A DNA stretch of 64,000 bases from an uncultured virus (IMG/VR IMGVR_UViG_3300025867_000015) (IMGVR_UViG_3300025867_000015:1-64000); one strand, 5' to 3'; counted from the stretch's first letter, positions 7,800 to 48,202 are shown. Notes: a model not told the origin generated them from the sequence alone. Translations and numbers: made by a program.

Positions 7800-8511
7800 C
7801 TCTTATCAAATAAATAAAGGGTTAGTGTTAATTCTTCAAAATCATTATCAATCTCTCTTACTTTCTTTTCAACATAATTTTTATCTTGTATTTCTTGAAG
7901 TAATGATAACAAAATATTATTATATTTTAGTTTCTCATAATCTGGTCTGCCCACTATCATTTTATTATACTTTAAATATCTATTACTACTACTTATCTTA
8001 ATCACATTACTCATATTTATTACAATATGAGAATCATCAGGTAATCTTACATACCCAAACTTCTTTAAAATTTTTTCAACTATCTTCATATCAATAGGGA
8101 GTTTAATTTTTCTGAATAAGCATTATCAATCTCCATATACCAACCAAAATCTTCTTCATCATCAACAAATAATTCACAAAATCTATCCATCATAACACAT
8201 ACCATATCTAAATGGATTAGAGATGTACAACTGTTAACTATCTTCAACAGTTTATTCTTAGCTGCCAATTTCTTTTCTTTTGAAATTCTTTTCATATCAA
8301 CCCTTTCTTAATCATATCTAATCTGACTTGCCACCAAGTATAATAATAATTAGGAGCATTAAACAATTTATTCAAATTTACCATTAAAATGGCTTCCCAA
8401 TATTTCTTCATTTTATGATATTTTTTCATATTCTATTTTAACGCCATAAAATTAATAAAAATAAATATAACTTTTATATTTATCATTAATTTTTATTCAT
8501 TATAAATAAGA

Positions 8512-8540
8512 AGGGTGGTCTATCTTAGACAGGCCACCCT
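8512..8540 (-). terminator. Hairpin / intrinsic terminator closing the tmRNA coding piece
   Basis: Minus strand AGGGTGGCCTG-TCTAAGA-TAGACCACCCT followed by TCTTATTT. Confidence 0.65.
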
Positions 8541-8668
8541 AATCAGAAATAAAATTCAGCTTATGCAGCTAATCTCATTTCCTGTTTTTGTGTAAAGATG
8601 TTGCCATCTATTTTGCACTGTTATATCTCTTTTATCCACAACTTATGCTGTCTAAACCAGTCAGCCCC
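8512..8668 (-). ncRNA. ssrA: tmRNA coding piece (permuted two-piece tmRNA); tag (A)GNIFTQKQEMRLAA*
   Basis: Starts GGGGCTGACTGGTTTAGAC (5' acceptor strand plus D-loop analogue). Tag frame 8605..8561 follows AAAATAGAT and ends LAA-stop within the hairpin TTAGCT-GCATA-AGCTGA. Confidence 0.92.
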
Positions 8669-8676
8669 TAATAAGA

Positions 8677-8810
8677 AGATAATAAACGATCACCTGGCAT
8701 CATCTGGTGGGTATAAAAAAATATAAAAAACCACCTCTCCCTGGATTATGGGTTACTTCTTGGATCAAACTTTCCTCAGTTCTTCTCGAGAACAACATCG
8801 TTTATTATCT
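8677..8810 (-). ncRNA. Unassigned structured RNA within the tmRNA intervening segment
   Basis: Perfect 14-bp closing stem (8677-8690 with 8797-8810) and internal hairpins GTTCT/AGAAC and GGTGG/CCACC. Confidence 0.6.
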
Positions 8811-8840
8811 GTTCACCGATTACGCATTAGGCGAATTATG

Positions 8841-8906
8841 TGGAGCTGCGGGGAATCGAACCCCGGTCCAAACATAGTTACAAATAACGTCAACAATATA
8901 ACAATA
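8841..8906 (-). ncRNA. ssrA: tmRNA acceptor piece
   Basis: GGAC-CGGGGTTCGATTCCCCG-CAGCTCC-A gives the T-arm and 3' acceptor strand, pairing with GGGGCTG including G3.U70. CCA is not encoded. It lies upstream of the 5' piece. Confidence 0.92.
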
Positions 8907-8908
8907 TC

Positions 8909-8920
8909 TTCAAAGAACTT
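8909..8920 (-). promoter_or_regulatory. boxA-like motif AAGTTCTTTGAA (copy 1)
   Basis: Exact 12-mer also at 9651-9662 and 9913-9924; each copy lies just 5' of an RNA gene. Confidence 0.55.
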
Positions 8921-8944
8921 TACTAATCACTTTATTTAAAAATC

Positions 8945-9262
8945 CTAAAGTGATTCGAATTCTTCTTCCAAATGCTTAATCTCTCTCTCAAAAATCCTTG
9001 CAATACGAATAGCACATTCTTGAATCTCTTCAACTACTTTCTTTTTTAATTCTTCAGATATACCATTAGCAGTCCCAAAATTATCAGATGTATATTCTTT
9101 CCCACCTTCTTTAGTCACAACAACTGTCTGAATACTTAAAGAACAGTCCTTAACTAAAGAACATGTCTCATCCCTGAAAGAAACTGATGCTCGAATTCTA
9201 TTCTTATAGTCATCAATAGTCTTCTTTAATTCATTAGCTTTTTCTAATTTATCTGTTGTCAT
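8945..9262 (-). CDS. Hypothetical protein
   Basis: Start moved to the ATG at 9262 (MTTDKLEKANELK), because the upstream GTG lies in the structured RNA. Confidence 0.6.
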   Translation of the reverse strand: MTTDKLEKANELKKTIDDYKNRIRASVSFRDETCSLVKDCSLSIQTVVVTKEGGKEYTSDNFGTANGISEELKKKVVEEIQECAIRIARIFEREIKHLEEEFESL

Positions 9263-13361: not shown

Positions 13362-14561
13362 CTACCCACCCACAGCAAAGCTGATGGGTTGGGCTTCGGA
13401 CTTCGTAGATAGTTGAGTATTACTACTTCTTACACCATCTCCATCCGTGTTTTCGACAGTTCCTGCCGAGTTTAATATTTTTAATCCTTCTTTAAAAATG
13501 TTCTTTGCTGCATTAAGGTCACGGTCTAATACGTGTCCATTTTTGCAAGTCCATTCTCTTATTGAAAGATTTAAGTCTTGATTTATCCAACCGCACTCAC
13601 AACAGGTTTTTGAACTTGGATACCAGCGATTGATTTTAACAATTTGTTTGTCATTCCAATTTGCTTTGTATTCAAGTAATCTTACAAAAGTTCCCCAACT
13701 GGCATCTGATATATGTTTTGCAAGTTTATGGTTTTTGACCATACCTTTCACATTCAAATCTTCTAATGCGATTATATCATAATCAGTTACCAATTTGTGA
13801 GATACCTTGTGTAAGTTATCCATTCGTGAGTTGGTTATCTTCTCGTAAATTAAGGCTGTTTTTCGTCTTTGTTTTTCAAACGAATTACTACCCTTTACTT
13901 TACGAGAAAGATGTTTTTGTGCTTTCGCTAACTCTTTTTCATATTGTTTTGTGTATTTGTTGTTCTTGAATTTGACACCATCAGAAGTAATAGCAAAGTC
14001 TTTTAAACCTAAATCTATTCCACAAACAGCACCAGTCTTTTCTTTTGGTTGATATTGTTCTTCTGATAGTATTGATACGAAATATTTTCCTGTTGGTGTT
14101 TTGCTCAAAGTGCATTTACCAATTTCCCCTTTAACTTCACGGTGAACATTTACTTTAATACCTTCTTTGAATTTTGGTGCAAAAAATCTACCAACTTCAA
14201 GTTTTGCGAACTGTGGAACTGTGAATGAGTTTTTCTTTTTCCTTGACTTAAATTGTGGAAACTTAGCGTTACCTCTAAAGAAGTTTACGTAAGCAGTATC
14301 CAAACATCTTAAAGCAAATTGTAATGATTGGCTATTCACTTCTTTGAGCCAAGCAGTTTCTTCTTTCTTTTTTAGTTCGGTTAATGTAGCAGCCTGTTTA
14401 TAGTAACTATCAGACTTTTTATCTGCTTGATATTGCTCTTTTCTTTCATTTAAAAAGTGATTGAACACAAACCGAACACAACCAAAATGCTTATCCAACA
14501 ACACTTTTTGCTCTTGTGTTGGCTGCAATTCAAATTGATATGTCCGAAAAATTGTCTTCAT
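13362..14561 (-). CDS. tnpB: RNA-guided endonuclease TnpB
   Basis: N-terminal HTH (FGCVRFVFN), RuvC D/E/D residues in GIDLG, LEDL and DRDLNAA, Zn-finger SSKTCCECG. Confidence 0.95.
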   Translation of the reverse strand: MKTIFRTYQFELQPTQEQKVLLDKHFGCVRFVFNHFLNERKEQYQADKKSDSYYKQAATLTELKKKEETAWLKEVNSQSLQFALRCLDTAYVNFFRGNAKFPQFKSRKKKNSFTVPQFAKLEVGRFFAPKFKEGIKVNVHREVKGEIGKCTLSKTPTGKYFVSILSEEQYQPKEKTGAVCGIDLGLKDFAITSDGVKFKNNKYTKQYEKELAKAQKHLSRKVKGSNSFEKQRRKTALIYEKITNSRMDNLHKVSHKLVTDYDIIALEDLNVKGMVKNHKLAKHISDASWGTFVRLLEYKANWNDKQIVKINRWYPSSKTCCECGWINQDLNLSIREWTCKNGHVLDRDLNAAKNIFKEGLKILNSAGTVENTDGDGVRSSNTQLSTKSEAQPISFAVGG

Positions 14562-14632: not shown

Positions 14633-14717
14633 CTAATTCGCCTAATGCTTCTTCTGCAACATCCCTTACTTCTTTTAGGGAGTGTTCTAGTATTAGAATT
14701 CTTTGAAAATCATCCAT
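14633..14717 (-). pseudogene. 5' part (28 codons) of the IS-interrupted gene
   Basis: MDDFQRILILEHSLKEVRDVAEEALGEL followed by the IS left end. Confidence 0.75.
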
Positions 14718-18472: not shown

Positions 18473-21400
18473 TTAACCACATTTTGAATACCCACAATTC
18501 AAACACTTCCAACATCCATCTGATGGTTGTAGTTTACTACCACATTCAGGACACTCTATAAACTCACTATCTATATAATTACGTAAAACCCTTTGAACAA
18601 CCTTATCAAAACTAGTAACCAATGCATATTGTTCTATTTCTGAAACGATAAACTTAGGATCTATCTTATGTCTAAGCATCATGGAATACTTACGTGTACC
18701 CACTTGATCTTCATTCTCTATAAGATCAATTATATTAGGAATTTCATAAGATTTATCAAATTCCTTATCAACACCTACTAACTTATATACTCTACTCTTT
18801 AGTTTTCTAATAGTACCCTTCTGTATCTTATAAGGGAAAATATGATTAGGTAACTCTGGAAATGCAAATATTTCATATGGTTTCCCTTCATATTTACCTA
18901 CCAAAATCATCCAATTTATTTTCAATGCCACTTTATGATAAATATCACACTCCAACTCTTTTGGCCGTTTAACAGCGTCAACATACTCAAAATTATTTTT
19001 CTTATCATTAACTAATATACCAGATCTTGATCCTTCTCTATATATTGTCATTCCCTTACAACCACTTTTATAAGCTGTCATATAAATATCATCAACAACA
19101 CTAATAGGAGTGTTTTCTGGAATATTAGTTGTTGCAGATATTGAATGATCAACCCACTTTTGTACCCTACCTTGCAATTTAACTTTATCAACCCAATTAA
19201 CATCTGATGAAGTTGAATTATGATAAGGAGACTTACTAACTAATATATTTAATTCTTCATCAGTATAATCTTCCAGTGGTTTTTTATAATCAATATCAAA
19301 CAATTTAATATCTGTTTTATACCAATTTTTATCATACCAGTCTTTAAACTTATGATGAAATACATTATATTCTTCAAACATCTCACCATGTTCATCAATA
19401 AAAGTAGCTTTACTCTTATCTATAGTCCTTCTTCTACGTTTATAAAATACAGCAAAACAAGGCTCTATACCAGAAGTAGTTTGTGTCATTATACTAGTAG
19501 TCCCAGTAGGGGCTATAGTTAAGTTAGAAATATTTCTACGACCATATTGTTTATAAACTAAATCAAATCTCCCCAATTCAGAATCACTATAATTAAAATC
19601 TGATATCCAATTAATAACTCTACTAACAAATGGATTATTTTTTTCTAATTCAAAATCCCACTTAAGAAATGACTCTCTCTCCTTAGCCATTATAATAGAT
19701 GATACATAACTTGAAATAGCTAATTGTTCATGAACTCTCTCACTCATATCAATAGCTAATCCAGAACCATATGTAAACCCTAATGCAGCCAACATATCAC
19801 CTTCTCCTGTTGTTCCTAATCCTGTTCTACGACCTGCTTGAGTTTTATAAAATATATTCTCCCAAAGTTCTTTTTCAACACTCTTAATACTATCTGATTC
19901 AGGATCATTTTCTATTTTTTCAAGTATCCTGTTTATCTTCTCAAGTTCTAAATCTACTAAATCGTCCATTAATCTTTGAGCAATAATTACATGTTCTTTG
20001 AATAAATCAAAATTAAAATATGCATCTTTCTCAAATGGATTAACAACATATGAATAAAGATTAATAGACATCAATCGACAACTGTCTTGAGGACAAAGTG
20101 GAATCTCTCCACAATTATGAACTAACAAACCTGAACTGTTTAAGAATTTATCATCATCTGTTTTAGTTATAATATAAAAATTATGATAATCTTCAACATA
20201 AATATCATATACTTCTTCTTTAGCAAGTTCTATAATATTATCTACATATATAGATTCATCTAAATTAACATTAATATCTTCAGGTTCTAATTCTTTTAAT
20301 AGATTACCAAATTCCTTATCAAATAACATTAAAGAATTTTCTAATCTATCATTATCCCAATTATATTTTTTAGCATTTGCATAAATATTTTTACGTTTAT
20401 TCATTAATCTTAAACGTTCTGTACCAACTATCTTATGAATAGGATTAGATTCTCCAATTCTATCTGTAATTTTAACATGCTCATTTATATCTAATAACCT
20501 TAAATTATTTAATGAATCATTTGTAGAATCACGATCAATATGATCAATATTATATAATTTACCATCATAAGAACCATAAAAATATTCATAAATCATTCTA
20601 TATTGTTTAGAATACCCATTATATCTACTATTAATATGTCTATATGATGATCCATTATTTTTATTAGAAAAAGAATAAAATTTACCTAACTTAACTCCTA
20701 AAGAATCTTTTGCTTCAACATAATTACCATCAAAAGTAGCTAATAAATGATCTGGAGTACATCTAAAAGAAGAGCCATCAGAAAGAATTACTTCTAAAAC
20801 TTTTCTTATACCAGTTTTAAATGCAATACCTTCTTTAATATTAACTTTCCATCCTCCACCTCTATTACCGTTAGAAGCATTCTTATCAGCACAATATACT
20901 AAAAATTTACTTCCCTTATCAGCTAATTCTTTAATAGTAACACCATTTCTTCCATCAGCAACAGCAATAATTGTATCTCCAGTTAAACATGGATTAGTTG
21001 ACTTAGTCTTCCACTCTTCTCCATAACAATCTGCAGGTGATTCTCTTATAATAGTATCCCAAAAGAGGATACCCGGTTCAGCTGATTTCCATGCATTCTT
21101 AATTATCTTATCCCAGAGATATCTTGCTTTTACTTTCTTTATATACCCACCATCAACCTTTAGTAGTTTGTTATACTCTAATTTATTAATTAAATCATAA
21201 TCTTTACTACAATATGGTATCTCTAAATCAATAGGAAAAGTTTGATAAAAATCACCATCACATACTACTCTTCCCATAAACTCATCTGTTATACGAACAG
21301 ATATATTAGCATCTGTTATCTTACCACTTTCTAATTTTGAATCTATAAATCTTTCAGCATCGGGATGTTTAATAGAAATAGATAACATCAATGCCCCTCT

Positions 21401-21925
21401 ACGATCACCTTGTCTTACTTCTTTAGTGGAATTAGAAAATCTCTGAGCATACAACACTGATCCTGCCATATCATTTAAAGCAGCATTATTAGCTAAAGCC
21501 CCAGCCGGTCTTAGATTAGATAAATCATGACCAACTCCACCTCTTCGTTTCATTAACTGTATTTGTTCTTCATCTGTACGCATTATACCACCATAAGAAT
21601 CTATAGCAGAATCTATAACAAAACAATTGGAAAGAGAAGTTATTGAAAATTCATTCCCGATCCCAAACATAGGTGATCCCTGTGGAACTATATATCTAAA
21701 TCTATCAAACAATTCAAATATCTTCTTTTCAGAAATGGGATTTGGATAGTTAGACTCTATTCTAGAAAACTCCTTAGCTAATCTTCTATGCATATCTTCA
21801 GGTGTCTTCTCTTTTATATCACCATTTTTATCTTTCAATGCATATTTATCTATCCACACATTAGCAGCTAGTTCATCGCCATTAAAATATTCACATACTG
21901 ATGAAAATATTTCTTCTTTAGTCAT
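18473..21925 (-). CDS. nrdJ: Class II (adenosylcobalamin-dependent) ribonucleotide reductase, intein-containing
   Basis: SLSNCFV, RRGGVG, RRGALM, NP[intein]CGEIPL, RRTGLG, TIAPTGT, SGIEP, C-terminal Zn ribbon; no beta subunit nearby. Confidence 0.93.
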   Translation of the reverse strand: MTKEEIFSSVCEYFNGDELAANVWIDKYALKDKNGDIKEKTPEDMHRRLAKEFSRIESNYPNPISEKKIFELFDRFRYIVPQGSPMFGIGNEFSITSLSNCFVIDSAIDSYGGIMRTDEEQIQLMKRRGGVGHDLSNLRPAGALANNAALNDMAGSVLYAQRFSNSTKEVRQGDRRGALMLSISIKHPDAERFIDSKLESGKITDANISVRITDEFMGRVVCDGDFYQTFPIDLEIPYCSKDYDLINKLEYNKLLKVDGGYIKKVKARYLWDKIIKNAWKSAEPGILFWDTIIRESPADCYGEEWKTKSTNPCLTGDTIIAVADGRNGVTIKELADKGSKFLVYCADKNASNGNRGGGWKVNIKEGIAFKTGIRKVLEVILSDGSSFRCTPDHLLATFDGNYVEAKDSLGVKLGKFYSFSNKNNGSSYRHINSRYNGYSKQYRMIYEYFYGSYDGKLYNIDHIDRDSTNDSLNNLRLLDINEHVKITDRIGESNPIHKIVGTERLRLMNKRKNIYANAKKYNWDNDRLENSLMLFDKEFGNLLKELEPEDINVNLDESIYVDNIIELAKEEVYDIYVEDYHNFYIITKTDDDKFLNSSGLLVHNCGEIPLCPQDSCRLMSINLYSYVVNPFEKDAYFNFDLFKEHVIIAQRLMDDLVDLELEKINRILEKIENDPESDSIKSVEKELWENIFYKTQAGRRTGLGTTGEGDMLAALGFTYGSGLAIDMSERVHEQLAISSYVSSIIMAKERESFLKWDFELEKNNPFVSRVINWISDFNYSDSELGRFDLVYKQYGRRNISNLTIAPTGTTSIMTQTTSGIEPCFAVFYKRRRRTIDKSKATFIDEHGEMFEEYNVFHHKFKDWYDKNWYKTDIKLFDIDYKKPLEDYTDEELNILVSKSPYHNSTSSDVNWVDKVKLQGRVQKWVDHSISATTNIPENTPISVVDDIYMTAYKSGCKGMTIYREGSRSGILVNDKKNNFEYVDAVKRPKELECDIYHKVALKINWMILVGKYEGKPYEIFAFPELPNHIFPYKIQKGTIRKLKSRVYKLVGVDKEFDKSYEIPNIIDLIENEDQVGTRKYSMMLRHKIDPKFIVSEIEQYALVTSFDKVVQRVLRNYIDSEFIECPECGSKLQPSDGCWKCLNCGYSKCG
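20114..20989 (-). mobile_element. Intein (292 aa) with HNH endonuclease domain in RNR
   Basis: CLTGDT...CTPDH...HIDRDSTNDSLNNL...VYDIYVEDYHNF...LVHN/C, inserted in the NPCGE active-site motif. Confidence 0.93.
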
Positions 21926-48161: not shown

Positions 48162-48202
48162 TATAGTATAGAGAGACTTTGTCAAAGTCTCTCTATACTA
48201 TA
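48162..48202. repeat. Perfect 20-bp inverted repeat with 1-nt spacer
   Basis: TATAGTATAGAGAGACTTTG-T-CAAAGTCTCTCTATACTATA. Confidence 0.9.

Follow-up and report, generated by a model that had tools for sequence, protein, structure and literature searches.

A stem-closed RNA insert in the intervening segment of a phage-encoded two-piece tmRNA gene

The window analysed here, a stretch of 64,000 nucleotides (nt), covers the initial 64 kb of an uncultured phage record of 76.5 kb (IMGVR_UViG_3300025867_000015) and has a G+C content of 30%. Using ARAGORN, a permuted tmRNA gene was located at 8470..8931 on the minus strand, where its neighbours are a portal gene, a ribonucleotide reductase gene, and a TnpB-like transposase gene. 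The Rfam family RF04321 (tmRNA_permuted) matched 8900->8561 over model positions 1-213 with 62.3 bits, the gathering cut-off of this family being 47 bits. The tag reported by ARAGORN, GNIFTQKQEMRLAA*, is read from the frame 8605->8561 and ends as a hydrophobic degron in AA followed by the stop codon. The acceptor stem is formed by GGGGCUG (8668->8662) and CAGCUCC (8848->8842), the latter followed by the discriminator A8841, and it pairs with a probability of ~1.0 in the 396-nt precursor. The alanine identity of the tRNA-like domain is given by G8666-U8844, which corresponds to the G3-U70 pair, together with the discriminator A8841. Two tmRNA pieces and the segment between them can accordingly be delimited, all on the minus strand:

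8841..8900, minus strand: tmRNA acceptor piece, with the P2 5' strand, the T-arm, CAGCUCC and the discriminator A8841 (RF04321 alignment, ARAGORN, and reading of the letters)
8669..8840, minus strand: intervening segment (spacer) of 172 nt, between the acceptor 3' end and G8668, an unaligned insert in a loop of the Rfam model
8505..8668, minus strand: tmRNA coding piece, with the GGGGCUG 5' strand, the tag frame, a terminal hairpin and a U-rich tail (ARAGORN, Rfam)

The terminal hairpin of the coding piece is rich in G+C and spans 8512-8540, directly before the U-rich tail. The 172-nt stretch separates the two pieces of a circularly permuted tmRNA gene that the phage encodes on the minus strand: it is the intervening segment of this gene, and its extent, 8840->8669, is exactly that of the spacer which the first-pass annotation had placed between the two tmRNA pieces. 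The 3' ends of tRNAs mature by a cut after the discriminator and the subsequent addition of CCA. In the tmRNA, CCA is not encoded, as A8841 is followed by C8840 and A8839, and the two tRNAs of the phage likewise lack an encoded CCA and continue with CA, which fits a 3' cut after the discriminator followed by CCA addition. Within the spacer, a scan of 8300-9100 detected nothing resembling a minus-strand promoter or a terminator, and separate transcripts for the two tmRNA pieces found no support. Elsewhere on the minus strand, 18473-21925 encodes a 1150-aa ribonucleotide reductase large subunit with HNH-endonuclease matches at residues ~414-486, which points to the insertion of a homing element, perhaps an intein.

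The spacer itself consists of a short 5' part, a module closed by a long stem, and a leader in front of the coding piece, with the following features:

8811-8840, minus strand: 5' part of the spacer, 30 nt, containing a hairpin region partly common to a related phage
8812..8835, minus strand: 5' spacer hairpin, UUCGCC (8835->8830) with GGUGAA (8817->8812) and a 12-nt loop (minimum-energy fold; pair probabilities 0.6-0.95)
8677-8810, minus strand: stem-closed module of 134 nt, lineage-specific
8797..8810, minus strand: 5' arm of the 14-bp closing stem, AGAUAAUAAACGAU (repeat search; unchanged in a divergent variant)
8691..8796, minus strand: module interior, 106 nt, site of the 13 substitutions and of six of the seven deleted bases of that variant
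8779..8793, minus strand: hairpin H1, GUUCU (8793->8789) with AGAAC (8783->8779), loop CGAGA (alifold consensus)
8706..8735, minus strand: hairpin H3, GGUGG (8735->8731) with CCACC (8710->8706) and a 20-nt U/A-rich loop (minimum-energy fold and alifold)
8677..8690, minus strand: 3' arm of the 14-bp closing stem, AUCGUUUAUUAUCU (repeat search; unchanged in the divergent variant)
8669..8676, minus strand: RNase P leader of 8 nt, UCUUAUUA, ending at the presumed RNase P site A8669|G8668
8700..8798, minus strand: open reading frame of 32 codons, judged not to be a gene, with its start in the stem and its stop lost in the variant

An inverted-repeat search returned the two arms of the closing stem, 14 nt each, 100% complementary and 106 nt apart, confirming at 8677-8690/8797-8810 the perfect 14-bp stem around 106 nt that had been claimed from the sequence. 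Perfect inverted repeats of at least 14 bp with a loop of 3-200 nt occur twice in the 64-kb window, compared with a mean of 0.19 in 100 dinucleotide shuffles; at least one was present in 17 of these 100 shuffles of the whole window, and shuffling the spacer alone gave such a stem once in 20,000 trials. The 14-bp stem is non-random, and its mean pair probability is 0.98 both in the isolated spacer and in the 396-nt precursor. The second of the two such repeats in the window lies at 48162-48202 and has a 19-bp stem with a 3-nt loop. The fold of the whole spacer is unexceptional when compared with shuffled sequences (z = -1.24; equalled or surpassed by 17 of 200 shuffles). Inside the module, two or three hairpins had been proposed, and H1 and H3 do appear in an alifold consensus, yet they are weak in the window's own sequence, with ensemble probabilities of ~0.5 for H3 and 0.10-0.17 for H1. 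The 134-nt insert is real and probably folded. Searching 8640-8860 with the 4227 families of Rfam 15 returned only tmRNA models and chance-level matches (E 1.2-3.1), and the module belongs to no described RNA family.

Further information on the module comes from contigs of four public runs that were aligned to 8400-9000. In one near-identical variant (X3 record 1), C8833 is replaced by U and the pair of the 5' spacer hairpin is kept as U-G. The sole divergent variant (X3 record 6), a 747-nt DNA contig of depth 5, matches 8646-8839 and differs from the window by 13 substitutions and seven deleted bases. Apart from one deleted base at 8669, all of these changes fall within 8701-8792, and the module interior is ~18% divergent; both stem arms, the 5' element, and the rest of the leader are unchanged. 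Two pairs of substitutions are compensatory, one in H1 (8792/8780, U-A to C-G) and one in H3 (8732/8709, G-C to A-U), and the loop of H3 carries four substitutions and six deleted bases. For the window together with the variant, whose sequence was rebuilt by coordinates from the difference table of this one contig, the consensus returned by RNAalifold comprised the 14-bp stem, H1, H3, and a pair of 3-bp hairpins. The joint alifold energy of -38.25 was lower than in 400 of 400 random placements of the 13 substitutions, and the energy of the module alone was lower than in 999 of 1000 placements that kept the mix of transitions and transversions, a null in which at least two compensatory pairs arose 29 times in 1000. 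A generous count of any possible helix was not significant, with at least two chance cases in 2,870 of 20,000 trials and three observed. In addition, the 14-bp stem is missing from the minimum-energy fold of the variant by itself. We take the module to be non-coding, and these modest signals suggest some constraint on its stem and its two small hairpins.

The flanks of the divergent variant differ from those of the window. Beyond 8839, the 69 nt available are not an acceptor piece, indicating that the spacer sequence is not strictly tied to the tmRNA arrangement. Before 8646, the contig diverges and shows, by eye, patchy likeness to the P2/PK1 region of the window. The relative from which the variant stems may carry a further insert at the acceptor end, as does another phage locus described below (L108), or may have a different arrangement. 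A 30-nt consensus of the loose end of the variant had no match in viral contigs.

Inspecting related phages places the module in a wider context. The same phage is also represented by a 94-kb contig (L008/L027/L047/L110), and the tmRNA gene on it is identical. When 11 loci were collected through their related portal genes, ARAGORN found a permuted tmRNA in two, that is, in the same phage and in L036, the portal of which is 71% identical; L036 was confirmed by Rfam among nine of the portal-relative loci (L026 and L027 being left out). The spacer of this relative (L036/L056) is 79 nt long, and what it has in common with that of the window is limited to its initial ~22 nt, around UCGCC..UAAUC, a likeness that covers the 5' spacer hairpin and was established by eye. 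Two further relatives with 68% portal identity, L111 and L112, scored 25.4 bits in two of the five records searched, below the cut-off; read directly, they contain a permuted tmRNA-like gene with a 68-69-nt spacer that includes a 7-bp hairpin. As the spacers of these relatives are shorter (68-79 nt) and free of the module, the 134-nt module is specific to the phage lineage of the window. In broader searches, none of 50,697 phage records matched 8450-8950 by blastn. A covariance model of the module (R1) found nothing beyond the module itself in 83 sources (264 kb) and no second copy in either record of the phage, and when metagenome contigs were screened with a two-arm pattern, the 94-kb contig already mentioned was the only one to match.

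Patterns drawn from the tmRNA pieces reach further. A 21-nt T-arm/acceptor pattern retrieved 24 loci from viral contigs, one of which is the same phage (L008, 100% over 600 nt). Among 20 of these loci (L008, L011, L016, and L022 being left out), Rfam detected no permuted tmRNA; they represent host-type tmRNA ends, tRNAs, and short tmRNA-like elements. Eight of the loci found in viral contigs (L003, L004, L005, L010, L012, L018, L021, and L023, at ~1441-1581) hold elements of 79-83 nt that match both ends of the standard tmRNA model (1-374 of 374, 56-66 bits) and look like mini-tmRNAs reduced to the tRNA-like domain or like reconstituted attachment sites. A mini-tmRNA consisting of the tRNA-like domain only has been described in mycobacteriophage DS6A (PMC4131195). 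The 19-mer of the tmRNA 5' end had no match in genome contigs, and a T-arm 30-mer had more than 120 matches, across Nocardioides, Bacteroidales, Chitinophagales, and others; given this taxonomic scatter, the matches carry no host signal.

Using a 19-nt pattern of the tmRNA 5' end, 73 viral loci were obtained, of which 17 were called permuted by ARAGORN and two more have an upstream acceptor motif. Across the 16 phage permuted tmRNA loci in which the acceptor pattern was found (L050 and L071 being identical, L047 being the window's phage, and the mutually identical L055, L062, and L105 being left out), the spacer ranges from 10 to 234 nt. Closure by a long stem also occurs in the spacers of L042, L061, L075, and L070, and others are strings of hairpins. 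Two comparisons are instructive. The tmRNA parts of L057 and L101 are nearly the same (69/70 and 218/230 nt identical), and their spacers measure 41 and 194 nt. Conversely, L050 (identical to L071) and L108 have 114 of 131 spacer nt in common, in a block of ~115 nt with 87% identity, while their tmRNA parts are only 64-73% identical. That this block is better kept than the tmRNA argues that some spacer contents may be selected for their own sake. In nine such loci, no known Rfam family was found in the spacers at E up to 0.1. Given how length and content vary among phage tmRNA genes, the spacer behaves as a variable slot, the contents of which come and go.

A small hairpin with GCC(A) in its loop was also seen just past the acceptor end in several of these loci, namely at L050:831-851(-), L072:815-835(-), L108:560-581(+), L082:746-767(-), L111:1656-1678(-), L056:622-642(+), and 8822-8840(-) of the window. 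Its stems vary (CUUUC/GGAAG, CUCAA/UUGAG, CUUAA/UUAAG, AUUAU/AUAAU, and GAUCA/UGAUC), all members of this subgroup lack an encoded CCA, and in L108 the hairpin lies ~100 nt downstream, behind an extra insert. As these hairpins were picked by eye and their registers vary between loci, the grouping is unproven.

RNA-library contigs offer a view of the transcript. Two contigs from two metatranscriptome runs, X6 record 17 (8694-8899) and X8 record 19 (8694-8846), have the same sequence as the window, and a third, X8 record 23, covers 8884-9000. The first two span the junction between acceptor piece and spacer, which are uncut from each other, so a molecule in which the spacer is still attached to the acceptor piece is present in the libraries; DNA carry-over is possible, the contigs display neither ends nor levels, and the two runs come from the same year and the same habitat, maybe from one campaign. 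Neither run yielded a contig over 8400-8693, the part with the coding piece, and a gap in coverage of this kind carries no weight. Both contigs end at 8694, 3 nt before the 3' arm, where DNA contigs continue. This shared stop is a weak hint of an RNA end, and a strain branch point or an effect of assembly could produce it as well as an RNA 3' end.

On balance, we favour the explanation that the module is a tolerated or exchangeable insert, clamped by its stem, co-transcribed with the tmRNA, and released as a by-product of processing. The whole gene (~8900->8505) would be transcribed as a single precursor of ~396 nt, in which the 14-bp stem folds the insert back and out of the way, its presumed role being that of a clamp. 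The 3' strand of the acceptor stem and the GGGGCUG 5' strand could then still meet and form the tRNA-like domain. RNase P would be expected to cleave 5' of G8668, at a site (A8669|G8668) placed from the tRNA-like domain and the established 5' processing of tmRNA, and the acceptor piece would be completed by a 3' cut of the tRNA type behind A8841 and the subsequent addition of CCA. The 172-nt spacer, including the module, would thereby be released once per tmRNA. The earlier idea of the spacer as a carrier is in keeping with this scheme, as by the logic of tRNA-type processing the segment would be cut away once for each tmRNA made. Beyond being tolerated, it is possible that the module has a function of its own.

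Such a function is the core of a reading we find credible but distinctly less likely, in which a stable small RNA, either the module or the 172-nt spacer in full, acts in its own right while the phage infects and is made 1:1 with the tmRNA through RNase P and tRNA-type processing. It could draw on the substitutions of the variant, which preserve structure and leave the arms intact, on the presence of the module in RNA-library contigs, on the L050/L108 spacer block being more conserved than the tmRNA, and on the precedent of an intact tRNA-Ala inside the intervening sequence of a permuted tmRNA, as reported in PMC11915505. However, neither a homologue nor a structural look-alike of the module turned up in the 83 sources, the phage collection, and one metagenome scan, the interior is ~18% divergent in the sole variant with weak internal hairpins, and the comparison of the spacer with its shuffles gives no thermodynamic signal. 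The first-pass annotation had regarded the segment as a separate structured RNA; the structured part of that claim is supported by the non-random stem and the structure-preserving changes of the variant, but the separateness is not, the nearest relatives having 68-79-nt spacers devoid of the module and the RNA contigs that contain it still being joined to the acceptor piece.

The RNA contigs also bear on two proposals about how the precursor is cut, both of which we consider unlikely. According to one, the 14-bp duplex is a site of the RNase III type, where a primary cut separates the two tmRNA pieces before RNase P and 3' trimming finish the ends. A perfect duplex with a pair probability of 0.98 that closes the insert would suit this, as would the long closing stems in four other phage spacers (L042, L061, L075, and L070), and the contig ends at 8694, 3 nt before the 3' arm, may be a weak hint in the same direction. 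Yet this stop falls outside the duplex rather than inside it, RNase P and a tRNA-type 3' cut already suffice, and 14 bp is short, as classical RNase III substrates are longer duplexes. The other proposal, which we hold to be comparably improbable, takes the stop at face value: the module would be selected within an exchangeable slot, the stable form would be a chimera of ~206 nt made of the acceptor piece and the module and ending at G8694, and the phage would use the tRNA-like half as a handle that carries extra RNA to the binders of that half. If true, the chimera could modulate trans-translation or compete with it.

Readings in which the module is a gene or a mobile element fare worse. It is very unlikely that the 32-codon open reading frame (8798->8700) is a real gene for a small protein carried in the spacer. 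The frame is open in the window and in the variant, but its AUG shares the final two bases of the stem's 5' arm and lacks a Shine-Dalgarno sequence in front of it. In addition, the five substitutions within the first 20 codons change four residues with none of the five silent, the variant no longer has the stop codon, the peptide matches none of the PHROG families at E up to 1, and the best tblastn match in 50,697 phage records has E = 9. Just as little weight can be given to the module being the relic of a small MITE-like mobile element whose 14-bp terminal inverted repeats, once it had inserted into the spacer, would yield the stem as a by-product of their pairing. Perfect 14-bp inverted repeats do bound a 134-bp unit absent from relatives, and a gene for a TnpB-like transposase lies ~4.5 kb away (13362-14561). 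Against this, the spacer and module are single-copy in both records of the phage, no direct repeat flanks the arms (the flanks being GAAC and UCUU), the homology of the variant (8646-8839) extends well past both arms, and the two-arm scan of metagenome contigs found nothing else. Searching the window for the stem arms with up to two mismatches likewise gave nothing beyond chance. The transposase open reading frame (minus strand, 399 aa) matches PHROG 506 'transposase' with E = 5e-133 and resembles TnpB of the IS200/IS605 type. A 15-nt identity between the 5' part of the spacer and 14634-14648, just upstream of this frame, has E = 0.04 and was treated as probably due to chance.

The two purine-rich strings to which attention had been drawn are both present in the RNA-sense minus strand, GAGGAAAG at 8777->8770 and AGATGATG at 8705->8698. 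That they mark a miniature RNase P-like RNA or another ribozyme can be practically dismissed: although GAGGAAAG(U) and AGAUGAUG (8705->8698) resemble what we take to be CR-I and CR-IV of bacterial RNase P RNA, the echo claimed on these grounds fails, as no RNase P, hammerhead, twister, or other ribozyme family matched 8640-8860 at E up to 10, the P4 partner strand was not found, including in the folds, the variant carries a change in each string (G8770>U and G8701>U), and 106-172 nt is far too small, every RNase P RNA known to us being far larger. A hidden tRNA-like 3' end (CCACC-AGAUGAU-G-CCA, 8710->8695) was also considered and rejected, as a 5' strand to match it would include a mismatch and four G-U pairs, the pairing is poorer still in the variant, and ARAGORN reports no tRNA here.

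Returning to the preferred reading of an exchangeable, stem-clamped insert, its interest lies in the kind of gene that carries it. Two-piece tmRNA genes are rare among genes for stable RNAs in having a built-in 'waste' segment that is excised once per molecule by universal enzymes. With spacers varying from 10 to 234 nt, differing by ~150 nt between near-identical tmRNA genes, and in one pair better conserved than the tmRNA itself, this segment is a plausible cargo slot. The module of the window would be one more filled slot, an ordinary member of the pattern. If any such cargo were functional, it would constitute a new route by which phages make small RNAs in a fixed ratio with a host-like RNA, and it would also be a natural design for the co-expression of RNAs.

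Circularly permuted tmRNA genes were reportedly described by Keiler, Shapiro and Williams in 2000 and by Sharkady and Williams in 2004, and the permuted types are alpha-proteobacterial, beta-proteobacterial, and cyanobacterial. According to two reports, the intervening segment of two-piece tmRNAs lies between the 3' end of the tRNA-like domain and the RNase P site and is removed without re-ligation (PMC11915505, PMC3978253). The segment of the window takes the same position between acceptor and coding pieces, and the same removal is expected; it differs in being phage-encoded and in its 134-nt insert with a perfect 14-bp stem, set 30 nt in from the acceptor end. At 172 nt, it also exceeds the loop of ~25 nt in the Rfam consensus (RF04321) and the 68-79 nt of the nearest relatives. 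A further parallel is found in ribosomal RNA: bacterial 23S rRNA can contain stem-closed intervening sequences that are excised by RNase III, leaving the RNA fragmented but functional. By analogy, both would be stem-closed inserts in precursors of stable RNAs that are lost without re-ligation, whereas here the host RNA is a different one, the break pre-exists through permutation, the stem is only 14 bp long, and a role of RNase III is putative.

Intervening segments of two-piece tmRNAs, tRNA-Ala cargo, and two-piece tmRNAs of phages are already known. In the literature searched, no paper dealt with structured-RNA cargo in phage tmRNA spacers beyond two cases (PMC11915505, PMC9004378). The first reports permuted tmRNA genes of up to 1152 bp and a permuted gene whose intervening sequence harbours an intact tRNA-Ala (PMC11915505). 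That gene and the one studied here both have a second folded RNA in the excised spacer, for which co-release is expected, but the cargo is a high-scoring tRNA in the former and matches no family in the latter. The second case is the OM43 phage Melnitz, which has a two-piece tmRNA and in which the 3' domain of ssrA includes a glnA-type riboswitch (PMC9004378). Melnitz, an aquatic myophage, belongs to a different phage lineage and has a different tmRNA type, and its element is a known riboswitch located in the 3' domain, whereas no riboswitch family matches the window; yet both are permuted ssrA genes of phages that carry an extra structured RNA element.
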